Source: Pirellulales bacterium (lineage in GTDB: Bacteria; Planctomycetota; Planctomycetia; Pirellulales; PALSA-1355). Taken from it: DNA of 64,000 nucleotides. Position numbers and translations under genes: made by a program. Under the pieces are notes generated by a model, which searched no databases, had not been told where the DNA came from, and saw only the letters and a program-made list of their open reading frames with translations. The DNA lies in NCBI GenBank assembly GCA_963733035.1, contig CAVTBU010000005.1, positions 352,001 to 416,000 of the forward strand. The letters run 5' to 3'. Below are positions 1 to 12,772 of this stretch, in pieces; position 1 is the stretch's first letter; each line of letters opens with the position of its first letter.

Positions 1-802
1 CGCCGCCGTAGGCACAGGCGAAGATAATGGTCGAGACAATCGTCGTACGGCGCAACTCTGGGCTGAACAGTTCGGCGAAACTCGGCCGACGGAGTTGTCC
101 GCTGGCACGCTTTTTGGCCCAGATGGGCGACTCCGGCAGGAAAGGCCGAATGATGATCAGCGGCAGCGCCGGGATCAAACCCGACATTAGAGTATAGCGC
201 CAGGGTGCATTGCCGTTGTGGATCTCACCCATAAAGCTCAGAAAGCCGGGGAATTGGATCGTCGGCCAATCAGCGGCAAACTTCGCGGCCAGCCCATAGG
301 CACCGGCAACCAGGAAGCCGCCAAGCGATGAGAATGCCTGCGTGTAGCCCAGCACGTTCTCGCGCTGCCGTGGGTCGGGGAACAGCTCGGCCAACCAGGC
401 CACGGCGGCCACGAACTCGACGCAAACGCCTACGAAGGTCAGGCAGCGGAGCACTAGCAACATCTGAATAGACGTGGAATAGCCAGCCGCGAACGCCGAG
501 AAAGCATAGATCAAGATGCTCCAGGTGAGCACGCGCCGCCGACCTAAGCGGTCAGTCAGGTAGCCGCCCAACAGTCCGAAGATGCCGCCAGCAACGGCCG
601 GCACGTAGAACAATAGGGATCCCCAATAACGAAAGCCGTCGCTGCCTGGCTTGAAGTCGGTCAGTTCGACGATCAAGTCCTTGATAATGAACTGCATCAT
701 CAGCAGTTCGTAGATGTCGAAGGCAAAGCCGATGGCCGCCAGCGAAACGATTAACCATTGCGTTGCGGTCAGCCTGTTGGAGCCAAGGGCCGGTGAGCTC
801 AT
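1..802 (-). CDS. MFS transporter, C-terminus beyond the window edge
   Basis: Manual translation from the ATG at 802 gives MSSPALGSNRLTATQWLIVSLAAIGFAFDIYELLMM...GGYLTDRLGRRRVL (MFS motif A)...WRYTL...LPESP. The frame is open to the window edge and is absent from the ORF track. Confidence 0.9.
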   Translation of the reverse strand, partial: MSSPALGSNRLTATQWLIVSLAAIGFAFDIYELLMMQFIIKDLIVELTDFKPGSDGFRYWGSLLFYVPAVAGGIFGLLGGYLTDRLGRRRVLTWSILIYAFSAFAAGYSTSIQMLLVLRCLTFVGVCVEFVAAVAWLAELFPDPRQRENVLGYTQAFSSLGGFLVAGAYGLAAKFAADWPTIQFPGFLSFMGEIHNGNAPWRYTLMSGLIPALPLIIIRPFLPESPIWAKKRASGQLRRPSFAELFSPELRRTTIVSTIIFACAYGG

Positions 803-970
803 GAAATGCCCTTCGTGGGTTTGCTTAGCGCGGGTGGAACGAGCGAAAGGTGGGAGCGACGACTGTGGGGGCATCCGTTCACGCGAGTCGTAGCCTCGCA
901 TGATAGTGAAACGGGTCGGCCGCTGGCAAGCAGCCGTGCCAAACGCTTCGATTGCGGCCCCCGAAGCAGA

Positions 971-988
971 TACTTCGCATGCGAAGTA
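971..988. promoter_or_regulatory. Perfect 18-bp palindrome, putative transcription-factor operator
   Basis: TACTTCGCATGCGAAGTA is its own reverse complement. It lies in the divergent MFS/kamA intergenic region. Confidence 0.5.
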
Positions 989-1017
989 AATCCGTTGAAA
1001 ATCAGGACTTGGCTCGC

Positions 1018-1046
1018 TTGCTTGACTTGCGTACCAATGGTATAAG
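1018..1046 (+). promoter_or_regulatory. Putative sigma70 promoter of the kamA operon
   Basis: TTGCTT-N17-TATAAG with an extended -10 TG. Confidence 0.5.
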
Positions 1047-1131
1047 CACGCCACAGTTCGCACGCCGAATTCGGATGCTCCGAGCGCGCGTTGCCGATGG
1101 ATGGCACTCTTGCTGGAGGGATTCGCTCAAC

Positions 1132-2559
1132 ATGAACCGATCGGAAACTGCGTCCATTGCAGTGCCCGCGGGCACCGCCACGCCGGACGACTTCGAGGAG
1201 CCTCCTGGTAGTCCTCGCCGGCACCCGAAATGGACCCTCGTCCCTGATGCGCAATGGGACGACTGGCGATGGCAGATGCAAAACGCCATTCGCACAACCT
1301 CTCAATTGGCCGAATTCTATTCTTTCGGCCCCCAGGAACTTGCCGCTCTGGAAGACCTGGAACAGAAGTACAAACTGGCGATTCCGCCGTACTACTTTTC
1401 GCTGATCGACCCGTTGGACCCGGCCGACCCAATCGGATTGCAAGCGCTGCCCTCATGGCGCGAACAATCAAGCACGGCCGGCGTGGAGCTGGAAGATCCG
1501 CTGGAGGAGGACAAGGACTCGCCCGTGCCGGGCCTGACGCATCGGTATCCCGATCGCGTGTTGCTGGTCACGACACACGTCTGCACGATGTATTGCCGTT
1601 TTTGCACGCGCAAGCGAGTCACGATGGACCGCGACGGTTGGGATGCTCCCAGCCACAACGACGAGCGGATGATCGCCTACATTCGCGACCACCGACAGAT
1701 TCGCGACGTGGTCGTTTCCGGCGGCGATCCCCTCTCGCTACCGCCCGCCCGACTACGATGGTTTGTCAGCGAATTGGCGGCCATCGATCACGTCGACGTG
1801 ATTCGCATCGGCACGCGGGTGCCGGTGACACTGCCGCAGCGACTGTTCGATCCGGAATTGATCGCGCTGCTCCGCAATGCCGGCAAGGTCTGGATCCAAA
1901 CGCACTTCAATCACCCTCGAGAAATCACACCGGCCTCGGCCAGCGCGGTTCGCAACCTGATAAACGCGGGCATGCCAGTGAGTAATCATGCGGTGCTGCT
2001 CAAGGGCGTGAACGACTCGGTCGACACGATGCGACAGCTCGTGCGCGGGCTGCTGCGGATCAAGGTGCGGCCCTACTACTTGTTCCATTGCGATCCGGTG
2101 ACGGGTGCCGGGCATTTTCGCACGCCAGTCTGGAAAGGTCTCGAGATCATCGAAGGGTTGCGGGGGCACGTTTCGGGGCTGGCCGTTCCGACCTATGTCG
2201 TCGACGGCATGCATGGCGCCGGCAAGATTCCGCTGATGCCGAACTACCTGGTGTCGGCCTCGGAGAATGCCGTCGTGCTGCGCAACTACGAGGGCCTGCT
2301 GTTTCGCTACGCTCCGGAAGATCGTCCCGAAAACGCGACCGCGGGTTACGCCTCGATCGGCGTCAGTTCGCTGCTCAGTGGCACACGTTCGGCGTTGTTC
2401 CCCGACGGCACTCCGCGATTGGAACGCCGTCAGCAACAGGCGTCGACTCCCACGTGCGAATCGGGAGAACCCGACGTGATCCAGCTTAGCGGTTACCAAG
2501 CCGGGGAAATGCGGGACGACTCACAAGACCCCTGGGCACGGTTGCCGAAGGCCAGGTGA
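1132..2559 (+). CDS. kamA: KamA-family radical SAM lysine 2,3-aminomutase
   Basis: Motifs W.DW.WQ, THRYPDRVL, CTMYCRFC (CxxxCxxC), SGGDPL, HFNHP, PYYLFHCD and the PLP lysine in GAGKIP. GGAGG RBS precedes ATG 1132. Confidence 0.92.
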   Translation: MNRSETASIAVPAGTATPDDFEEPPGSPRRHPKWTLVPDAQWDDWRWQMQNAIRTTSQLAEFYSFGPQELAALEDLEQKYKLAIPPYYFSLIDPLDPADPIGLQALPSWREQSSTAGVELEDPLEEDKDSPVPGLTHRYPDRVLLVTTHVCTMYCRFCTRKRVTMDRDGWDAPSHNDERMIAYIRDHRQIRDVVVSGGDPLSLPPARLRWFVSELAAIDHVDVIRIGTRVPVTLPQRLFDPELIALLRNAGKVWIQTHFNHPREITPASASAVRNLINAGMPVSNHAVLLKGVNDSVDTMRQLVRGLLRIKVRPYYLFHCDPVTGAGHFRTPVWKGLEIIEGLRGHVSGLAVPTYVVDGMHGAGKIPLMPNYLVSASENAVVLRNYEGLLFRYAPEDRPENATAGYASIGVSSLLSGTRSALFPDGTPRLERRQQQASTPTCESGEPDVIQLSGYQAGEMRDDSQDPWARLPKAR

Positions 2560-2624
2560 GCCGCGGCAAGCAATTGCACCTGGGTTTTGTTTCCCCCCCA
2601 TCACCTCTTGTAGAGGAACGGCGC

Positions 2625-3686
2625 GTGAGAATTGGTTTGACTTTTAACGTCCGACGGGCCGAGCGCCCGTCGGACGTTTCGAGAGCAGGCTTTCTGCCTC
2701 TTCCCGGCGACGATCAAGAAGAGGAATTCGATTCGCCGGAAACGATTGCAGCGATTGCCGAGGTGCTCTCAAGCCTGGGGCACGAAGTCGAATTATTGGG
2801 AAACTGCGAGACGCTGCTCGAGCGGCTGCTCAACGGACCACGGCCGGACCTGGTCTGGAACATCGCCGAAGGCCAGGGTGGCGGCCGCTGTCGAGAAGCT
2901 CAGGTGCCGGCCGTACTCGAGATGCTCGGCATTCCGTACACCGGTTCCGATCCGCTCACGCTGTCCGCGACACTCGACAAGGATTGTGCCAAGCGATTGG
3001 TGTCCAGCGTAAACGTGCCGACCCCGCGTTGGTTCTTATATGACGGAGCCGCCGAATCGGTGTCCGTCGAGGCAAGCGCACTTGCCTTTCCCGTGTTCGT
3101 CAAACCGGCGTACGAAGGTTCGAGCAAGGGGATTCTCAACCGCAGTGTTCTTCACGATGTCGACGAACTGCAAGCAGCCCTCGAGCAGCTCCACGAAGTC
3201 TACCGACAGCCCGTGCTCGTCGAGGAGTTCATCGACGGCGACGAACTAACGGTCGGCGTCGTCGGCAACGAGGCTCCCGAAGTGCTGGGCATCATGCGGA
3301 TCCTTCCCCGCTTGAAATCGAGCCAGCCGTTCGTTTACGGTCTGGAGGTCAAGCGAGACTGGCAACGGCTGGCGAGCTACGAGTGCCCAGCCCGCCTGGC
3401 CCCCAAAGACATCGAGGCGGTAAACCGCGCGGCGCTTTCCGCGTGGCGCGTGCTGGGCTGCCGCGACGTGGCACGATTCGACTTCCGGCTGCGCGACGGC
3501 GTGCCCTATTTTCTGGAAACCAATCCCCTACCGGGTCTGTCTCCCACGTCTGGAGACCTGGTGTTGCTGGCCCGGGAGATTGGCGTCGAGCACGCCGCGC
3601 TCGTCGCCAAGATTCTGCAGGCCACGTGCGACCGGTTGGCGCATACGGACGCGCGACCGCACGCGACCAAGGTGTTGGCCCGCTAA
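2625..3686 (+). CDS. D-Ala-D-Ala-ligase-like ATP-grasp protein, copy 1
   Basis: Motifs NIAEG, PYTGSD, LDK, FVKP..EGSSKGI, LVEEFIDGDE, RFDFR and FLETNPLPG. It lacks the GGxSxE N-terminal motif of true Ddl. The start is GTG 2625 after GAGG (ORF track start 2556). Confidence 0.85.
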   Translation: MRIGLTFNVRRAERPSDVSRAGFLPLPGDDQEEEFDSPETIAAIAEVLSSLGHEVELLGNCETLLERLLNGPRPDLVWNIAEGQGGGRCREAQVPAVLEMLGIPYTGSDPLTLSATLDKDCAKRLVSSVNVPTPRWFLYDGAAESVSVEASALAFPVFVKPAYEGSSKGILNRSVLHDVDELQAALEQLHEVYRQPVLVEEFIDGDELTVGVVGNEAPEVLGIMRILPRLKSSQPFVYGLEVKRDWQRLASYECPARLAPKDIEAVNRAALSAWRVLGCRDVARFDFRLRDGVPYFLETNPLPGLSPTSGDLVLLAREIGVEHAALVAKILQATCDRLAHTDARPHATKVLAR

Positions 3687-3809
3687 AACTGCTGGCGTCG
3701 ACACCCCGCGCTGGTGTAGCATGTCTTGGCCCACAACGGCTACGTCATCGGCAACCTAGTCTGCCAGCTCTTACCGCCCACGAAGCGGTGGAACCAAGGG
3801 AGATTCGAC

Positions 3810-5801
3810 ATGGCAACGAACGGCAAAGCCAAGAAAAAGATCCAACGGACACTCGATGCACGGCCCGACACGTTGGACTTTCGCGACCAGATGTATGTGG
3901 CGACACTCGTCGAGGTACCGCCGCAGATCTCGCTGTCGAAGTACAAGAGTTTGAAAGTTCCCATTCTCGACCAGGGAACTGAGGGGGCCTGCACCGGTTT
4001 TGGATTGGCCACGGTGGCTAACTACCTGTTGCGTCATCGCCGCGTGTCTCCAGGCAACGCGCAGGTGAGTCCGCGAATGCTCTATGAAATGGCTCGGCGC
4101 TACGATGAGTGGCCGGGCGAAGCATACGAAGGTTCAAGCGCCCGCGGAGCCATGAAGGGCTGGCACAAGCATGGCGTATGCTCAGAGAAGATATGGCCGT
4201 ATCAGGCGTCCGATCGCGGGGAACTTTCGGCCCTGCGAGCCAAAGACGCGACGCGACGACCTTTGGGGGCCTATTTCCGCGTGAACCACAAAGACCTGGT
4301 TGGCATGCATGCCGCCCTGGCGGAGGTGGGCGTGCTCTATGCCACGGCTGTTGTTCACGACGGTTGGGACCGCGTTGGGAAAAACGGCAAGATAGCATTC
4401 AGCGACAAAGTGCTTGGCGGCCACGCATTTGCCATCGTGGCTTACGACCAGCGTGGGTTCTGGCTGCAGAATTCCTGGGGCAAGTCCTGGGGCGCGCAAG
4501 GCTTCGGGCACTTGACGTACGACGACTGGCTGCAAAACGGCACCGACATTTGGGTGGCGCGGTTGGGCGTGCCGGTCACAATCACCTCTGCCGGCGGCGT
4601 CGCGCTCACACATTCCGGCCAGCACCGCACAAGTGCCTACACGTTCGAAGAATTGCGACCGCATATCGTGAGCGTGGGCAATGACGGTTTGCCGAGAAAC
4701 GAAGGCACGTATGCCACGACGACAGCCCGTATCAGCGCGATCTTCGCCGATGACTTTCCGCGAATTACCAAAAGTTGGAAAAAGAAGCGGCTGCTGCTCT
4801 ATGCGCATGGGGGGCTCACCGACGAGGAGTCGGCCGTCCAACGGGTGGCCGACTTTCGCACCTCGCTACTCGAAGCCGAAATCTATCCCGTTTCCTTCAT
4901 TTGGAAAACCGATTACTGGACGACACTCAAGAACGTGCTGGAAGATGCCCTGCACCGTCGTCGACCGGAAGGCCGACTGATCGATGCTGCCAAGGATTTC
5001 ATGCTCGACCGACTCGACGATGCCCTGGAGATTCTCGCCCGTCGGCTGACAGGCAAGCTCGAATGGGATGAAATGAAGGAGAACGCGCTGCTTGCCACGA
5101 CGGGCCTCGGGGGTGCCGCCAGGCTGGTTGCACAAGAGGTGGCGAAGCTGAATTCGGTCGAATTGCACCTCGTCGGTCACAGCGCCGGCAGCATTTTGCA
5201 CGCGCCGCTGGCGCAACTGTTGGCAACGCCCGGCAAGATCGCCTCCGGCCCGATGAAGGGCGAACAGGGCCACGGCCTGAAAATTGCCTCATGCACGATG
5301 TGGGCGCCGGCCTGTACGGTTTCACTCTTTAACGACACCTATCGCCCGTTGATTGGCGGCGGACAACTCCAGCGGTTTGCCTTGTTCGGGCTGACGGATC
5401 AGGCCGAACAGGACGACGACTGTGCCGGCATTTATCACAAGTCGCTCCTGTATCTGGTCTCCAATGCATTCGAGCAGTTTGAACGGCTGCCGTTCGGTTC
5501 CTCGCAAGGAGAGCCGATACTGGGCATGCAGCGGTTCATCGATTCCGGACTGCGAAAACTATTGAAGCAAGCGCCGCACCAGTGGGTCTTGGCACCAAAC
5601 GCCGAACCGGTCGGCTCGGTCGCCGCCTCGGGCTCGCGGTCGCACGGAGGGTTCGACGATGACCGGGCCACGCTACGTGCCACACTGGCCTTCATCCTGA
5701 ACAAGGCCGTCTCGCACAACGGCACACACCTCGATCACACACTCTCGGGCCTGCGATCGATTCGAGGGCGGATCAACGACGCGTTGGTGTCGCTGCGCTG
5801 A
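3810..5801 (+). CDS. C1 (papain-like) cysteine peptidase fused to an alpha/beta-hydrolase domain
   Basis: The N-domain has QGTEGACTGF, GGHAF and QNSWG (Q/C/H/N catalytic set). The C-domain has HGGL, the nucleophile elbow LVGHSAG and a late HGGFD. No evident signal peptide. Confidence 0.85.
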   Translation: MATNGKAKKKIQRTLDARPDTLDFRDQMYVATLVEVPPQISLSKYKSLKVPILDQGTEGACTGFGLATVANYLLRHRRVSPGNAQVSPRMLYEMARRYDEWPGEAYEGSSARGAMKGWHKHGVCSEKIWPYQASDRGELSALRAKDATRRPLGAYFRVNHKDLVGMHAALAEVGVLYATAVVHDGWDRVGKNGKIAFSDKVLGGHAFAIVAYDQRGFWLQNSWGKSWGAQGFGHLTYDDWLQNGTDIWVARLGVPVTITSAGGVALTHSGQHRTSAYTFEELRPHIVSVGNDGLPRNEGTYATTTARISAIFADDFPRITKSWKKKRLLLYAHGGLTDEESAVQRVADFRTSLLEAEIYPVSFIWKTDYWTTLKNVLEDALHRRRPEGRLIDAAKDFMLDRLDDALEILARRLTGKLEWDEMKENALLATTGLGGAARLVAQEVAKLNSVELHLVGHSAGSILHAPLAQLLATPGKIASGPMKGEQGHGLKIASCTMWAPACTVSLFNDTYRPLIGGGQLQRFALFGLTDQAEQDDDCAGIYHKSLLYLVSNAFEQFERLPFGSSQGEPILGMQRFIDSGLRKLLKQAPHQWVLAPNAEPVGSVAASGSRSHGGFDDDRATLRATLAFILNKAVSHNGTHLDHTLSGLRSIRGRINDALVSLR

Positions 5802-5887
5802 GAGCAATGGGGCGGGCTTCGCGAACGATAGGAGATTGGCTACGATGACGCTCGTCCAATGGGCCACGGCACAGGGTCGTTCGCGGC

Positions 5888-6916
5888 GTGAAAGTCATTC
5901 TCCTCTATAACGAACCGTCGTTGGCGGCCGACGATCCGGACGTGGAATCGGAGGCCGGGGTGCTGGAATCCGTGGACGCGGTCGATGCTGCCCTGGCCTC
6001 GCACGGCCATCGGACGCATCGGGTCGGACTGTCGGCCGAGCCTGCGCTGGCTGCCGAAACCATCGTGCGGCTTGCCGAGGCCGACGTGGTTTTCAATCTG
6101 TTCGAAGGATTTGGAGGCGTCGGCCACGGCGAAGCGGAGATTGCCGGACTGGCCGAGCTTTGCGGGCACGCCATCACCGGTTCGCCAGCGGAATGCCTGG
6201 CGCTGGTGCGCGACAAAGCCCGAACGAAATGGCTGTTAGCGGGTGGGGGCGTGTCGACGGCTGAATTCCGGCTTGTCGTGCCTGGCGACTTATTCGATCG
6301 CGAGGGGCTGCAACAGTTGCTCGAACTCGGGCCAGCAATCGTCAAACCAGCTCAAGAGGACGCCAGTCTGGGTATTGGGCCCCAGAGTGTCGTGAGTGAA
6401 CTAGCGCGGCTCGAAGAGCAGCTCGGTGTGATTCATCGCCGCTACGGACCGGCACTCGTCGAGCGGTTCATCGTGGGTCGCGAGTTCAACGTGTCGGTGC
6501 TCGCACTTCCCGAACCGGAGCTGCTGCCGCTGGCGGAGATTGAATTTGGGCCCGCGTTCGGAGAGGACCGGCAAATCGTCACGTACGCGGCCAAATGGGA
6601 ATTGGCGAGCCAGGACTTTTCGCACACGCCGGTGCGTTGTCCGGCGGACGTCGCACCGGAGCTGGCATCCGAGATCGGCCAAGTGGCCTTGGCGGCATTT
6701 CGGCTGACCGGTTGCCGCGACTACGCTCGCGTCGACTTGCGCGTCGATGCGGAAGGGAGGCCGCATGTACTGGAAGTCAACGCGAATCCCGACATCAGCC
6801 CCACAGCAGGTTTTGCCAGGGCCCTGCGAGCCGCCGAAATCGAGTACGATACGTTCATTGACCGACTGGTGAGAACGACGCATGCCAACCGCGCAGAAAT
6901 TCGAGCCCGCCGATGA
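5888..6916 (+). CDS. D-Ala-D-Ala-ligase-like ATP-grasp protein, copy 2
   Basis: Motifs VFNLFEG, ITGS, DK, IVKP..EDASLGI, GREFNV, YAAKW, YARVDLR and LEVNANPD. Confidence 0.87.
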   Translation: MKVILLYNEPSLAADDPDVESEAGVLESVDAVDAALASHGHRTHRVGLSAEPALAAETIVRLAEADVVFNLFEGFGGVGHGEAEIAGLAELCGHAITGSPAECLALVRDKARTKWLLAGGGVSTAEFRLVVPGDLFDREGLQQLLELGPAIVKPAQEDASLGIGPQSVVSELARLEEQLGVIHRRYGPALVERFIVGREFNVSVLALPEPELLPLAEIEFGPAFGEDRQIVTYAAKWELASQDFSHTPVRCPADVAPELASEIGQVALAAFRLTGCRDYARVDLRVDAEGRPHVLEVNANPDISPTAGFARALRAAEIEYDTFIDRLVRTTHANRAEIRARR

Positions 6917-6971
6917 ACGCCCGGCCGCGACCGCCTCGAAACCACGTACTCGCCCGAGGAGGCTTCGGCGC

Positions 6972-7742
6972 ATGATTCACGTGCTAATCTGGGGCTTGGT
7001 TGTGTGGGTTGCTATCGCTTACCTGATACTTCCGGCGCTGTGGCGGCACTACGAACATCATCCGGATCTGGCCGTTGCGCCAAAGACCACCGAGACAAGC
7101 ACGGACATTCCCGGCGATCCACTCAACGTCGCCTTGATCGGCAGCAAGAGCGAAGTGATTCGGGCATTTCTCGACGCTGGTTGGTATCCGGCCGACCCGA
7201 TCACGCTAAAGACTTCGCTGGAAATCGCCGAACGGGTGTTGGTCGACAGGCCTTACCCCAAGGCCCCCGTAAGCAGCCTGTATCTATTTGGCCGCAAGCA
7301 GGACTTGGCTTTCGAGCGACCGGCCACCAAAAGCCCCAAGCAGCGCGAGCACGTGCGATTTTGGTTGTGGAAGGGACACGAGGAACAGAACCGGCCGATT
7401 TGGCTCGGCGCGGCCACGTTCGATAAGAGCGTGGGGCTCAGCCACTACACAGGACAAATCACGCATCACATTGCGCCAGACATCGACGACGAGCGCGATC
7501 GGCTGATCGCGGACCTGGGCAAGGCGGGGCAGTTGGTGCGCTCGTCGCAAGTGACCGGCATCGGCCCGACACTCAACGGTCGCAACGGCGGCGGCGATCG
7601 CTACTTTACCGACGGCGAAGTGGATGTCGCCGTCCTTTCGCCCGACAACGCTAAACAACAGGCGCCTCCCGAGCAGTTGCCCAACCCGCCGGCAGTGAAG
7701 CTGAAGAACCGGATTTGGGGATGGATTCGGCCCTGGCTCTAG
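6972..7742 (+). CDS. Membrane-anchored LssY C-terminal-domain protein
   Basis: N-terminal TM helix, then GDPLNVAL, AGW, LFGRKQDLAFE, RxHVRFW, WLGAATFD and THHIAPDIDDER. GAGGAGG RBS precedes ATG 6972 (alternative start 6882). Confidence 0.75.
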   Translation: MIHVLIWGLVVWVAIAYLILPALWRHYEHHPDLAVAPKTTETSTDIPGDPLNVALIGSKSEVIRAFLDAGWYPADPITLKTSLEIAERVLVDRPYPKAPVSSLYLFGRKQDLAFERPATKSPKQREHVRFWLWKGHEEQNRPIWLGAATFDKSVGLSHYTGQITHHIAPDIDDERDRLIADLGKAGQLVRSSQVTGIGPTLNGRNGGGDRYFTDGEVDVAVLSPDNAKQQAPPEQLPNPPAVKLKNRIWGWIRPWL

Positions 7743-7784
7743 CCGCGTACGATCGTTCGGTACATGGCGGCACGCGGGATTTGC

Positions 7785-9152
7785 TCAACCATCGACGCGC
7801 CGATATTGCCCCGAGTTCTTTTCCGAAAGCGTGCGCAGGAATTCGTCGGTGGGGCTGCCGGGAAATCCGGGAGCAATGCCGATCGTGTAGATGCTGATGC
7901 GGCGGACGCGATTCACCGTGGTGATGGCCCGGATGATGTCGACCGGAGCCAAAATCTTGCCGCTGGTCGGAGCACCATCGGAGAGAAAGTAGATTGCCTC
8001 GGTGTCATATGTCAGCGCGGTCTCCAACGCGTTGTAAGAGGCCGTGTTACCCTCTGGCGATTGGCGCTCGACGTAGATCACTGCCGCCTTCTTGTTTGTC
8101 GCGTTGGCCGGCATGAGCTTTTGCTGCCAGCGATCGACGCTGCCGTTGAACACCACGATGCCGAAGTGGGCGTAGTCTGGTAACCCTTGGATTGCCCGGA
8201 TCAACTCGCGTTTGGCCGCCAGCATGCGACCACCTTGCATGCTGCCGGAAATATCGAGCACGAAGACAAGTCGTTCGGCAAACAGGGGAATACCGTAGTA
8301 CTGCCCCGCCTCGCTGTCGAGTTCGTCGGCCCGCGTGACTTTCACGGTGAGTTGGGAGGGAACCGTAGCGGTGTGCGCCGAAGCGGTTTCCCGACGCTCG
8401 GCCAACCGCCACTTTTGCCAGGCGTCGACGTTCAGACCAAATGATTGTCCGGTCGCTCTCATCAGGTAGCGGACGGCGTCGGCCTTGGCTTCGCCACCGA
8501 CGATCCCAAGCATGCCAATCAGCGGATCGAGCGATTCCTCGGACGGAGTTTTGGTAAGCGCTTGAACAACGGCCCGGCGAATACCGAAGTGCGCCGCAAA
8601 CAACTTGGCGTTCGACATTCGCGCCAGAGGCCTGACGTCGGACGCCGTGCCGTGCGAACCCAATTCGTCGGCCAGCGCGACAAGCAGTTCGGGACCTTGG
8701 GGCGAGCTGGCCAGTTGTTCGTCCATGAATTGCTGAGCTTGCACTTGCGCCAGGGGCAAGTCCGAGGCCAAAAGGGCCGCCAGCGCCGGCAGCACCATCG
8801 GTGAGCCATTACGTTTTTTAAGGCTCGCCTGAGCCGCCGCCAATAGCGCATCGCACACTTCCTGCTCGTCGTTCATCTTGTGCAGCGCTTCGTAAGCTGC
8901 CGCGCGGACGCTGTCGTCCACGTCGACGAAACAGCTATGCACCAACCGAGCCGATTCCGCCACCCGATACTTTTCGAGCGACTTGAGGGCGTCGATTCGC
9001 TGCTCTACCTTGTTGCTATGCAGTTGCCGACGCAGCTTCGGTTGCATCTCGTCAAACTGCTCGTACACGCTTTGGGCGAGCGACGACTGCGATGCAAATA
9101 GCAATCCGGCGGCGGTCAGCACGTGCGCGAGAGTGCGCGCGATCTTTGACAT
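7785..9152 (-). CDS. Secreted HEAT-repeat and VWA domain protein
   Basis: Signal peptide, helical HEAT-like repeats, and C-terminal MIDAS DISGS...T...SDG. GAGGAGG RBS precedes ATG 9152. Confidence 0.8.
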   Translation of the reverse strand: MSKIARTLAHVLTAAGLLFASQSSLAQSVYEQFDEMQPKLRRQLHSNKVEQRIDALKSLEKYRVAESARLVHSCFVDVDDSVRAAAYEALHKMNDEQEVCDALLAAAQASLKKRNGSPMVLPALAALLASDLPLAQVQAQQFMDEQLASSPQGPELLVALADELGSHGTASDVRPLARMSNAKLFAAHFGIRRAVVQALTKTPSEESLDPLIGMLGIVGGEAKADAVRYLMRATGQSFGLNVDAWQKWRLAERRETASAHTATVPSQLTVKVTRADELDSEAGQYYGIPLFAERLVFVLDISGSMQGGRMLAAKRELIRAIQGLPDYAHFGIVVFNGSVDRWQQKLMPANATNKKAAVIYVERQSPEGNTASYNALETALTYDTEAIYFLSDGAPTSGKILAPVDIIRAITTVNRVRRISIYTIGIAPGFPGSPTDEFLRTLSEKNSGQYRRVDG

Positions 9153-9338
9153 GCGGGACACCTCCTCTGACCCACCGACCGGCTGGACTCATCCAAGACG
9201 CACCATACGTCGGGGGCAACATCAATTGTCCTGCCTGATGCCGCGGTCTGTCAAGCAAGCACTCCGCGGTTGAGGGCATCCCGGGGAGACCACCGTGCGA
9301 TCGATCCGCGGTATTTCGTGCCGATCTCGTCGGCCAGA

Positions 9339-11385
9339 TCAAGCGACCACGTCGGTGATCTCCGTCGTCGATGGCGCCGCCTGCTGGCGACGGCTCATCT
9401 GCCGCCACAGTTGGCGAAGTTGGTCGCTTGTACTCTGCGGCAGCCGGCCACGAGCGTAGGCGGCCCGGGAGTAAAGCTCGGCTAGATTGCGGGCGTCGGT
9501 GGCGATTTCGCGATTCAGGCGGCCGACGTCGCGGGCCAGTTCGTGCGGAGTTTGATCGGCGTCGCGCTGGCAGCCGTGCTCGCGCGACCAGGCTTCGAAG
9601 GCCTCGAAGCTGTAGCGGACCAGTTCCTCCGGGGCCAGGCCAGATGCCGCGCCGCTGGCAAACGGATCGGCAAAGCTCGCAAACGGCGGCGGCGGAACGC
9701 GAATGTCGAGCACGGCGTCCTCGGCTACACCGTAATCGCGCTTGCCGCCCCACAGCGTCCGCCACCAGTTACGAAGCTCGGTGAGAAAATTGCGGATTGC
9801 CCGCAGAACTTCGTGCCAATAGCGCCACAAGGCGAGCAGCACTGCCAGGATAAACAGACCATAGAAGATGTATTTTGCAATCGTCATCAGCGGACTTAGC
9901 GGCGCCTCGAAAGACGGGATGTCCATTGGCTCGGAAGCTTGACTTTCAGCGTCCGCACTCGGTTCGGCCTGCTGACTCTGTTCGCCTTTCGGCTTGTTCT
10001 CATAGGGGGCCGCCAATTCCTTTTGCGCCTCTCGATACTTCTTCATGTTCCGCACAAATTCAGACTCGCGCGGAGTGTCTGTTTCTTCTGGCTGGCTGTT
10101 TTGCTCGGAAGGCGACTGTTGCTCGTTCTGAGCGGCCTGGCTGTCTGCGCCCTGTGCGGACTTACCAGACGGGCCGGACGACGGTTTGGACTGAGATGGC
10201 CGCGATTGCTGTTTGTCTCCTTGGCCTTGCTTTTCCGAAGATTGCCCGCTCGATTGATCGCTAGATTGCCGCTTGCCCGGCTGTTCACCTTGTCCGGAGC
10301 CCTCGCCGGGCGAGTCACCGGGCGAGTCGCCGCTTGCCTTGCCGGCCGACTGGCCGCCAGGTTGATGGCCAGTACCTTCCGGGGGATGATCGCCGGCTTG
10401 GAGTTCATTTTCTTTTTCTGCCGCCGGGCCTTGCTGATCGTCATGCGTGCCGTTTTTTTTGGAGGGGGCAAAGCGAGACGCTTGCTGATCTGGCGAGCCG
10501 ACGTTGAACGGCAGTTTCGAAATCGCGTATTCCGCGCTCGGCCGCGGCAGCAGCGCCGCCGTCACGATCAACACAGCGACGATGGCGGTGCCGGTCGCAA
10601 GCCAGAGATTGGCCATCATCGTCGGCATTTCGATACGGCGCTGGCGCAGATAGCGCCGCAGGCCGAGGAAGCTGGTCGTGAGTAGCAGTCCCAATCCGCT
10701 GGCTACGTAGACACACAACAGTAAAAAGACGTAGCGACGTCCGCCGGTGTCCGACGCGGGAATCAGCCATTGTCCCAGGCCAAAGATCGGCAGAGCCGCC
10801 AGTGAAAAATACACCACCCAAACGCCCGGCGCGTGCGGCCGTCGCTGATGCTCGACGTAGCGCTGCCAAAAGCTCGCGGGAACTTGCCGCGTAGTCGTGC
10901 CGGCCAGGCGCTCTTGGTCTGCAACCGCGTTTCGCTCGTCAGCCGGCCTCTCCAACCCGACGACCTGCATCAATCCTTCGCCAGATGAATCTTCCGCGTC
11001 GTCGACTACCGTGCAATCCCAGGTCAATTGATGGGCGCACCACCAGACGATTCCGATCACGGTGAAATTGATGATCCAACTGTACGGATCGACCCACGTG
11101 CCCTGGTATTCCATGAATCGGTTGGCGGCGATGCCGACCAGGATGGCCAAGACCGCGCCAAACGGTGCCGCCCGCTCGAATCCCTGTTCGATCGAGATCC
11201 GGCCGATCAGGACGGCGGCAAACACGAAGCAGGCCATCACGAAGTGCAATCGTTCTTGAAATTGCCCCTGGTAAAACACGCGTAGCAGAAAGAACATCAA
11301 GCTGCCGACCAGCGCCATGATCGAGCGCCGGGCTGATGGCGATCACGACGTAGTCGGCCAGCGTTTGATGGAGGCGGCGAGGCAT
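9339..11385 (-). CDS. Multi-pass membrane protein with a low-complexity linker and C-terminal DUF4129-like domain; apparent frameshift near 11322
   Basis: The N-terminus MPRRLHQTLADYVVIAISPAL joins IMALVGSL if one base is removed. The C-terminus has R..DQTPHELA...Y.RAAY. Confidence 0.7.
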
Positions 11386-11431
11386 ATTAACAGGATGCAG
11401 CCAGAAGGCTGGCAAGTGAAACAACACTTCC

Positions 11432-12772
11432 CTATTGATAAATCGATTGCGGGATGTCGGGGGCCGACTGCAGGACATGGGCCTGGCAGACGCTGCTGAC
11501 GCTCGTTTCGTCGCGGAGGTGGCGCGCGTCGATCTGCTCTGCCAGCAGCTTACCAGCCGCTGCGGCGTACTCGCGATCTTCGTAGATGCTGACCAGCGCC
11601 GTCACGGCAAAACCTCGTCGCCGGAGGTTGCCCAGCGCCACGGCGGTTTCGTCGCTGACGCTTGTCAGAATGGCAACCACGGTTGCATCGCGCGGCAGGC
11701 GCGGGGCGGTCTCCATGACCAGTTGCGCCAGTGTCAGGCCGTCGGTCAACTCGGCCCGCGCGAGCGTTTCGAGAATTCGCATGAGTTGTTCCGGGCCCCG
11801 GCGCGTCTCGACGACGAGCGGTTGCAGCCGGTCGCTGGCGTCGCGCATGCTAGCGGCACGCATGGCGGCGTCGCGGGTGCGAATGTCAAAGTCCCAGCCT
11901 TCCTGGCGAATGCGGTCGGCGGCGTCGCGGGCGTTGGTCACCAGCCCCACCTGCTGGCCCATTTGAAACACGGCGTTGGCCAATGATGCGGCGGCCGTGA
12001 CCGCCAATTCCGATCGCATCGGTTCGTGCCGCGCTTCGAATGAATCCCGATGAAAATCGAGCACGACGGTAATGCCGGCGACCGTCGAGGGCTCGTAGAT
12101 CTTGCTGTGTAGCTCGCCGGTCCGCGCGGTTGCGCGCCAATGTATGCGGTTCAGTGGATCGCCCGATTCGTAGCGCCGCACGCCGGCCATGCGCGTGGGA
12201 TCCTCGAACAGGCGATAGCTCATTTTCACTTCGCCGATCGGCCGCCGCGAAGCCAGATCGAATCCGGCCAGCGGCTGCACCTGTGGATAGACGAGCAGAA
12301 AATGCGGCTCGGTGGCCACGCGGTAGCGGCGATGCAGACCGAACACGTCTCCCGTCTCGAGCACCAGGGGACCAATCTGGTAATAGCCGCGGCGGTTGCA
12401 CTGCAGTTGGTAGTAGACGGTCTTGCGACCACGGCGGCCAAACATGGCCAGATTTAGTCGTTTGCCGCTAGGACGCAGACTAGGCGGGTCATAGACAAGC
12501 GAGTCGCGCGGCAGCAGATCTTCGGCCAAGACCCAGGCAATCGGCAGCGCTCCGCGATTCTCGATGTTGATGACCACGGCCACGCTTTCGCCGACATAGG
12601 CGGCCAATCGATTGCACTCCCGCGTGGCCGAAAGATTCTCGGACCAGGTGCGGGCCAAAAAGCGGCTGACCAGCATCACGCCTAGGAGCGTGTACATGGC
12701 ATAGGCCAACAGCCCCAGGTTGAACGCCAGGGCCACGACCAGCAACGACGTTGCTCCCAGGAACCATTTCAT
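11432..12772 (-). CDS. DUF58 domain protein (MoxR partner)
   Basis: Motifs RRGYY.IGP, VRRYESGDPLNRIHWRATAR and ELAVTAAASLA. Its start overlaps the MoxR stop codon. Confidence 0.88.
   Translation of the reverse strand: MKWFLGATSLLVVALAFNLGLLAYAMYTLLGVMLVSRFLARTWSENLSATRECNRLAAYVGESVAVVINIENRGALPIAWVLAEDLLPRDSLVYDPPSLRPSGKRLNLAMFGRRGRKTVYYQLQCNRRGYYQIGPLVLETGDVFGLHRRYRVATEPHFLLVYPQVQPLAGFDLASRRPIGEVKMSYRLFEDPTRMAGVRRYESGDPLNRIHWRATARTGELHSKIYEPSTVAGITVVLDFHRDSFEARHEPMRSELAVTAAASLANAVFQMGQQVGLVTNARDAADRIRQEGWDFDIRTRDAAMRAASMRDASDRLQPLVVETRRGPEQLMRILETLARAELTDGLTLAQLVMETAPRLPRDATVVAILTSVSDETAVALGNLRRRGFAVTALVSIYEDREYAAAAGKLLAEQIDARHLRDETSVSSVCQAHVLQSAPDIPQSIYQ

Follow-up and report, generated by a model that had tools for sequence, protein, structure and literature searches.

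We analysed a window of 64,000 nucleotides (nt) from a Pirellulales bacterium (GenBank assembly GCA_963733035.1, contig CAVTBU010000005.1, positions 352,001 to 416,000 of the forward strand). Near its beginning lies a gene group that encodes a KamA-family aminomutase (KamA) and two ATP-grasp ligases resembling D-alanine–D-alanine ligase (Ddl), here named Lig1 and Lig2. It is close to certain that the genes kamA, lig1 and lig2 form a real unit, and we think it fairly probable that this unit is a pathway to a small beta-lysine amide or peptide. Both the use of beta-lysine by the ligases and the small-molecule nature of the product are what we infer from the protein sequences and their neighbourhoods. 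A preliminary description of the region had taken five genes (kamA, lig1, a gene for a "dual-hydrolase fusion", lig2 and a gene for an LssY_C protein) as one functional unit. The five co-oriented, closely spaced open reading frames (ORFs) were indeed found at 1132-7742, but the comparison of related loci contradicted their functional unity: only kamA, lig1 and lig2 are conserved together.

Conservation of the kamA-lig1-lig2 module

In a scan with one genome per species we obtained 384 relatives of Lig1, and the locus counts given below refer to the best 80 of them. These 80 loci came from Pirellulales, Gemmatales, Phycisphaerae-type and other Planctomycetota, with 9 loci from Chloroflexota (Dehalococcoidia) and one Armatimonadota record, and the window proteins were run on them by tblastn. 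KamA, Lig1 and Lig2 were found in this order in 61 of the 80 loci, across three phyla, while KamA with Lig1 occurred in 69 and Lig1 with Lig2 in 71. The comparison of gene neighbourhoods, proposed beforehand as a check of the linkage between kamA and the ligases, therefore found it conserved. The gap between the aligned stretches of Lig1 and Lig2 had a median of 93 nt and stayed within 431 nt in 70 of the 71 loci, against 2,201 nt in the window. Clustering of all the flanking ORFs of the 80 loci returned no other widely shared gene and no conserved peptidase.

We also considered 301 evenly drawn Planctomycetota genomes, with thresholds of E ≤ 1e-60 for Lig1, E ≤ 1e-90 for the KamA type and E ≤ 1e-42 for the Lig2 type. 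Lig1 was present in 28 genomes and the KamA type of the window in 62; 25 of the 28 genomes with Lig1 held both, and in 21 of these 25 the two genes lay within 2.2 kb on one contig. Lig2-type matches were found in 37 of the 301 genomes, including 22 of the 28 with Lig1. In seven Lig1-negative genomes a Lig2-type match lay at most 3 kb from KamA, which indicates that variant cassettes exist. Such cassettes, with KamA and one or two Lig2-like ligases and no close Lig1 orthologue, were seen in G214 (G214:C5:27082-30951), G065, G115, G249, G313, G319 and G332. In the Dehalococcoidia class (which holds locus L077) Lig1 orthologues occurred in 22 of 151 genomes, several of which are single-contig genomes of 1.4-1.9 Mb. 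Among the carriers of the module are soil and groundwater Planctomycetota as well as Dehalococcoidia-class genomes with sizes down to 1.2-1.9 Mb.

The commonest fourth member of the cassette in other lineages is a small GNAT, which the preliminary description did not include. Of the 80 loci, 18 have a gene for a GNAT of about 160 amino acids (aa): directly after Lig2 in every one of the 9 Chloroflexota loci and in 5 loci of Planctomycetota, after Lig1 in the Armatimonadota locus, and 3.6-3.9 kb downstream in the 3 others. Against NCBIfam the cassette GNAT matched no AblB model, the best match being rimI (E 1.6e-8). The window genome has an unlinked GNAT (G000:C6:776042-776671, or L114:6042-6671) that is 40% identical to the Dehalococcoidia-type cassette GNAT; its gene is divergent from those of an OPT oligopeptide transporter and a Peptidase_S46 protein.

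Lig1-related proteins of 659-2000 aa numbered 930 at E ≤ 1e-20, and fusions were counted over 40 tabulated from 120 of them. Six of these 40 long relatives (P0006-P0011) carry Lig1 at the N-terminus and Lig2 at the C-terminus, and in the five that were placed in the tree described below the halves fell inside the Lig1 and Lig2 clades. These natural fusions fit the earlier supposition that the two ligases act together and are the best evidence for it obtained here; because they exist, Lig1 and Lig2 probably work as a pair.

The other 34 tabulated long relatives (tandem proteins of about 700 aa, called Myxococcota-type here because they are Myxococcota wherever a source names them) were rejected as Lig1-Lig2 fusions, as both of their halves lie on the Lig1 side of the tree. 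Their loci (L115-L194, for example L142:6001-8124 and 8164-9498) encode KamA or GNAT in 0 of 80 cases. Where at least 7 kb was available (45 loci), a Peptidase_S58 gene follows the tandem ligase in 36 and a gene of the RDD family precedes it in 41. The Myxococcota-type tandem ligases and their peptidase are a separate, uncharacterised system. A single frame of 1034 aa joining KamA and Lig1 in genome G007 (L110:3823-6927) was not counted as a fusion, since this genome has many frame breaks, and it may be an assembly error instead.

Judging by titles and the starts of abstracts, the papers searched contained no description of a kamA-lig1-lig2 cassette; the 2009 survey of ATP-grasp amidoligases (Iyer et al.) lay outside this coverage.

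The aminomutase and the two ligases

KamA passes the NCBIfam model of the KamA family, TIGR00238, whose cut-off is 199.2 bits, with a score of 305.9. It falls below the cut-offs of the glutamate 2,3-aminomutase model (408.6 against 650), the arginine 2,3-aminomutase model (368.7 against 600) and the EpmB model TIGR03821 (231.5 against 369.3), and its gene has no linkage to efp or epmA. With the solved clostridial lysine 2,3-aminomutase 2A5H it aligns at E 1e-124. Identical in the two proteins are the CxxxCxxC motif (C125/C129/C132), R134, D293, D330 and K337, where 2A5H residue numbers were counted from this alignment. We take CxxxCxxC to be the cluster motif, K337 to be the lysine that binds pyridoxal 5'-phosphate (PLP), and D293 and D330 to be the residues that hold the side-chain amine of lysine. 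The HCD and VVDG motifs of KamA, previously read as retained substrate-binding Asp residues that favour lysine, do align with D293 and D330, and the retention of both positions argues against glutamate as the substrate. From these residues KamA is most likely a lysine 2,3-aminomutase.

Genes for the partners of KamA in known pathways (efp/epmA, ablB and kamDE) had been reported as absent from the locus, and none was found there. The genome has a complete EpmB-EF-P-EpmA set elsewhere, all over cut-off: EpmB, at C6:516658-517695, scores 387.7 against 369.3 and its gene adjoins efp and epmA, and EpmA scores 343.3 against 286.9. AblB (TIGR03827) gave no match at E ≤ 0.001 in this genome, which is 92% complete, while the same model matched in 6 control genomes, in 2 of them over cut-off. 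The search for the kamDE families gave no match in the genome, and none in the control either. The genome also has a true Ddl on another contig (C7:674978-675922); it scores 290.3, where 243 is the cut-off, carries the N-terminal domain and is encoded beside a Mur ligase gene. Since Ddl and the EpmB-EF-P-EpmA set are present and AblB was not found, the KamA of the window is left with no known consumer of its product except its neighbours.

Neither Lig1 nor Lig2 is a Ddl of this kind. Their best scores with Ddl models (NF002378 / TIGR01205) are 167.5 and 119.7, respectively, against the cut-off of 243; both proteins remain under the cut-off of every Ddl and Van model, and both match only the C-terminal Ddl domain, with no match to the N-terminal domain PF01820. 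They share 32% identity, and the nearest solved structures of both are Ddl/Van enzymes (E 5e-27 and 1e-20). The preliminary description had set them apart from true Ddl by the missing GGxSxE motif, and from each other by the ATP loop (EGSSKG in one, EDASLG in the other). Both features are as claimed, and the true Ddl of the genome carries GGESAE.

We compared each ligase with 20 orthologues. Invariant in Lig1 are the acidic residues D53, E56, E57 and D59, the EGSS and KRD motifs, R307/D309 and E321/N323; invariant in Lig2 are N8, P10, FNLxEG, K236, W237, R281/D283 and N298/N300. Both ligases keep the positions that align with the Arg/Asp and Glu/Asn core of Ddl, which we take to be catalytic and Mg-binding, respectively. 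In place of GGxSxE, Lig1 has D..EE(F/Y)D and Lig2 an N-terminal YN.P. By profile alignment, the acidic block of Lig1 sits at the Glu of GGxSxE. The omega-loop Lys-Tyr of Ddl is Lys-Arg in Lig1 and Lys-Trp in Lig2, and Lig2 has EDAS in place of EGSS. The ligases thus appear to keep the residues for ATP/Mg catalysis with rebuilt substrate pockets, and an acidic pocket in Lig1 would be a good fit for a diamino acid like beta-lysine.

In a tree of 73 sequences Lig1 and Lig2 form separate clades, each with orthologues from both Planctomycetota and Chloroflexota, and the Lig2 clade is sister to a third Ddl-like gene of the genome. The product of this gene, Lig3 (G000:C5:1801957-1804141, or L089:4958-7142), shares about 30% identity with Lig1 and Lig2; the gene starts within the last part of a Peptidase_Mx-like gene, and a hybrid histidine kinase is encoded after it. 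The ESM Atlas returned only unnamed "Ddl family" clusters.

In the pathway that we favour, KamA would convert L-lysine into beta-lysine, and Lig1 and Lig2, with ATP, would form amide bonds between beta-lysine and one or two other partners that offer an amino or carboxyl group, so that two successive ATP-dependent ligations would give a beta-lysine amide or peptide that is small and soluble. Where other lineages encode the small GNAT after Lig2, this enzyme would probably N-acetylate the product. It could serve as a compatible solute, a polyamine-like cation or a bioactive peptide. More tentatively, and with less than even confidence, we propose that KamA and a heteromeric pair of Ddl-derived ligases make a beta-peptide-type metabolite independently of ribosomes and of non-ribosomal peptide synthetases (NRPS). 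A beta-lysyl di- or tripeptide, acetylated where GNAT is present, would be one example, and the product would belong to an undescribed class of bacterial solutes or polycations, one kept even in the very small genomes of a second phylum.

The inserted gene, the neighbours and the upstream region

The coordinates of the features are collected in Table 1. The stop of kamA and the start of lig1 overlap by 4 nt. Between lig1 and the inserted gene lie 123 nt, and between the inserted gene and lig2 86 nt; lig2 overlaps the LssY_C gene by 35 nt, or precedes it by 55 nt if the alternative start is used.

Table 1. Features at the beginning of the window, in window coordinates
Feature	Position	Strand	Description
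kamA	1132-2559	+	KamA-family radical S-adenosylmethionine (SAM)/PLP aminomutase; Pfam Radical_SAM and LAM_C
Lig1	2556-3686	+	Ddl-like ATP-grasp ligase, clade A; PF07478 (Dala_Dala_lig_C) E 2.9e-34
Inserted gene	3810-5801	+	Papain-like C1 domain and C-terminal probable Ser-Asp-His hydrolase domain; PF00112 E 3e-9
Lig2	5888-6916	+	Ddl-like ATP-grasp ligase, clade B; PF07478 E 1.9e-25
LssY_C membrane-anchored protein	6882-7742 (alternative start 6972)	+	PF14067 E 4e-66
Divergent MFS transporter	2-1063 (runs off the window; true start probably < ~900)	-	PF07690 E 4.9e-18
Promoter-like block upstream of kamA	1016-1051	+	Conserved in aligned upstream regions

The gene between lig1 and lig2, with an ATG at 3810 and its own GGGAG ribosome site, encodes 663 aa. 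Its product had been put forward as a member of the pathway, but the gene is a strain-level insertion, found in none of the 80 related loci. Among 41 related genomes only G007 has a full-length relative, on a different contig from its kamA-lig1-lig2-lssY genes, and the other matches are to the C1 domain alone. Searches of three same-genus genomes did not find the gene at full length, and in one same-genus genome, G003 (L111), Lig1 and Lig2 are adjacent. The family comprises at least 7700 proteins at E ≤ 1e-5, with a length of about 660 aa. Members about 60% identical occur in anammox bacteria, Gimesia, Nitrospira, Bacteroidota, a cyanobacterium and a betaproteobacterium (as named by the sources); such identity over unrelated phyla fits horizontal spread and local insertion. 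We read the gene as horizontally acquired and unrelated to the module, and its family has the look of a single gene that moves horizontally. The junction between Lig1 and the insert is also spanned by a contig from a soil metagenome (about 93% identical), so that the insertion is not an assembly artefact. Among the matching DNA contigs, which are short pieces only, no form without the insert was found. The only repeat flanking the insert was a 21-nt match of 81%, which we attribute to chance.

The "dual hydrolase" description of the inserted protein is plausible, and half of it is shown. The N-terminal C1 peptidase stands (PF00112 with 37.7 bits against 20.7; PDB 3OIS at E 1e-13), and C61, H205 and N221, which by their motifs we take to be the Cys/His/Asn catalytic triad, are invariant with their neighbours in 34 homologues. 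The C-terminal half had no Pfam match at E ≤ 5, and the PDB profile search matched the N-terminal half only. This half would be a hydrolase by its GHSAG motif and its invariant Ser, Asp and His, and a 61% identical homologue matches the alpha/beta hydrolase family DUF900 (PF05990; 24.4 against 20.5). PADLOC gave no match for any of the five window proteins.

The LssY_C protein (PF14067, 222.6 against 25 bits; 256 aa in the database gene call) and the MFS transporter had likewise been associated with the pathway, but both are lineage-specific neighbours, limited to the bacterial family of the window. LssY_C follows Lig2 in 4 of the 80 loci, and also in G003 and G007. The MFS gene is found in 15 of the 80, all close Pirellulales-type, and its homologues align from residue ~85 on. 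An amino-acid permease takes the MFS position in 13 Gemmatales-type loci. The predicted model of LssY_C had a mean predicted local distance difference test (pLDDT) of 86.7 and a predicted template modelling score (pTM) of 0.83. With this model Foldseek found nothing at E ≤ 0.001, and the best Z of a wide PDB structure search (4.5) was within the background range. Residues H26, H29, H127, H165, H166, D151 and D172 of LssY_C are invariant in 40 homologues, and its invariant His, Asp and Arg suggest a metal or catalytic site. Beyond it, on the - strand at 7785-12772, lie genes for VWA/HEAT, DUF4129 and DUF58 proteins whose order is kept in the close relatives L001-L009, L039 and L110; we regard them as an unrelated conserved cluster.

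Upstream of kamA the alignment showed a promoter-like block, with a -35 region GCTTG/TTGCTT (1016-1023), a 17-nt spacer and an extended -10 TGGTATAAG (1038-1046), followed by CACGC. Across all of the 14 upstream regions aligned, the 14-mer TGGTATAAGCACGC (1038-1051) is invariant, at a distance of 86-105 nt from the ATG of kamA, and the 6.6-Mb genome has it only once. The conservation extends past the -10, which suggests a specific regulatory site instead of a generic promoter. The single promoter predicted for the five genes was not confirmed by the consensus scan for promoters and terminators, which returned no + strand promoter and was not above shuffled sequences; the conserved block was seen on alignment. 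A look for RNA runs that contain the stretch found none. With Rfam, window 1-12000 had no family at gathering score, with a chance-level match in the kamA leader only. A hairpin in the 5' untranslated region of kamA (consensus fold -4.8 kcal/mol, little covariation) was considered and is not claimed.

Alternative readings and comparison with known systems

The findings that weigh against a beta-lysine pathway by KamA and a ligase pair concern the enzyme, the linkage and the pairing. The best-scoring equivalog model of KamA, the AblA lysine model TIGR03820, gives 462.5 bits and so remains under its cut-off of 525.4, and the stretch of KamA aligned with the C-terminal Cys cluster (CNCDVC) of 2A5H is Cys-free. 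Of the 19 exceptions to the three-gene order, a contig end truncates 7; no adjacent KamA is found in 7 that have the full upstream flank, and no adjacent Lig2 in 6 that have the downstream flank, one locus being in both of the latter groups. In the Planctomycetota sample, 37 of the 62 genomes with the KamA type have no close Lig1. Only 6 fusions of Lig1 and Lig2 were seen among the tabulated long relatives, with no fused ORF in the 80 loci. Finally, the linked transporters are only circumstantial with respect to a small acceptor.

Among the alternatives, the one that fares best, though we consider it unlikely, is that the ligases build a polymer or oligomer, which might be a polyamide like cyanophycin or a homo-oligomer of beta-lysine. 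One ligase would start the chain and the other extend it, and the local hydrolases (the C1 fusion and LssY_C) would process it or turn it over. Two different ligases with one amino-acid supplier would fit this, as would the peptidases adjoining other Ddl-like ligases (Peptidase_Mx beside Lig3, Peptidase_S58 beside the Myxococcota-type ligases). However, these peptidase-paired systems are without KamA, no peptidase is conserved with the module, the hydrolase fusion is missing from the related loci and unlinked in G007, and the nearest solved relatives of the ligases are dipeptide-forming Ddl enzymes.

Only slightly less probable is that KamA acts on arginine, ornithine or glutamate, in which case the product would not be a beta-lysine compound. 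KamA reaches none of the three equivalog cut-offs, its scores with the glutamate and arginine models are sizeable, and its C-terminal region is unlike that of 2A5H; yet the lysine model scores highest and both Asp positions, which in 2A5H hold the side-chain amine of lysine, are kept, which speaks against glutamate.

We give a still lower probability to the attachment of beta-lysine, or of a residue onto beta-lysine, to a protein or envelope component, in the manner of EpmA or RimK. Such a role would have precedents, as beta-lysine modifies elongation factor P (EF-P) in bacteria and the ATP-grasp enzyme RimK modifies proteins, and in the family of the window a membrane-anchored LssY_C follows Lig2. 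The genome, however, already has its complete EpmB-EF-P-EpmA set, no gene for a candidate target is conserved beside the module, LssY_C is rare among the loci, and the recurring divergent neighbours are transporters of small solutes.

It is very improbable that all five genes and the MFS gene form one pathway with the dual hydrolase and LssY_C as integral parts. Co-orientation and tight spacing agree with this, as does the soil population, about 93% identical, that keeps the junction of Lig1 and the insert; against it are the distribution of the hydrolase gene (no related locus, not full-length in three same-genus genomes, another contig in G007, a family about 60% identical over unrelated phyla) and the low counts of LssY_C and MFS. 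That the ligases are spare or variant cell-wall D-Ala-D-X ligases, placed beside kamA without functional meaning, is hardly credible: their closest solved structures are all Ddl/Van, but their scores are far under the Ddl cut-offs, Dala_Dala_lig_N and GGxSxE are missing, the residues at the D-Ala site differ, a true ddl is present elsewhere in the genome, and the linkage to KamA is conserved over three phyla.

A small beta-lysine amide or peptide thus stays our preferred product. To our knowledge, few fates of beta-lysine have been established: the modification of EF-P, N-acetyl-beta-lysine, fermentation, and antibiotics made by NRPS. A conserved and widespread operon whose aminomutase supplies beta-lysine to two ATP-grasp ligases of its own would point to a new metabolite. 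The ligases would, in addition, widen the chemistry known from the Ddl branch of the ATP-grasp enzymes. For annotation, the name "D-alanine--D-alanine ligase" is misleading for Lig1 and Lig2, and the eye-catching hydrolase gene lies outside the pathway.

The module can be compared with four known systems. The AblA/AblB pathway leads to N-epsilon-acetyl-beta-lysine in methanogens and some bacteria, with kamA-yodP in B. subtilis. The module would share with it an AblA-type lysine 2,3-aminomutase as the first step and, in other lineages, a GNAT in the same operon. Unlike in that pathway, the conserved partners are two ATP-grasp ligases, the cassette GNAT has no AblB match, and the product would have to hold at least one ATP-dependent amide bond. 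In the EpmB/EpmA system, similarly, a KamA-family enzyme feeds beta-lysine to a dedicated ligase, but EpmA is a paralogue of lysyl-tRNA synthetase, whereas the ligases of the module are ATP-grasp proteins. With the Ddl/Van enzymes Lig1 and Lig2 share the ATP-grasp domain PF07478 and the Arg/Asp and Glu/Asn core; they differ in not lying in a cell-wall gene cluster, in lacking the Ddl N-terminal domain, and in the replacement of GGxSxE and of the omega-loop Tyr.

ATP-grasp ligases that form small amides are the L-amino-acid ligases, carnosine synthase, which joins beta-alanine and histidine, and NAGGN synthase, which combines GNAT and ATP-grasp. These resemble the proposed pathway in their small peptide products, some of them with a beta-amino acid or N-acetylation. 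We know of none among them with a radical-SAM aminomutase or with a pair of Ddl-like paralogues, as encoded by kamA, lig1 and lig2.

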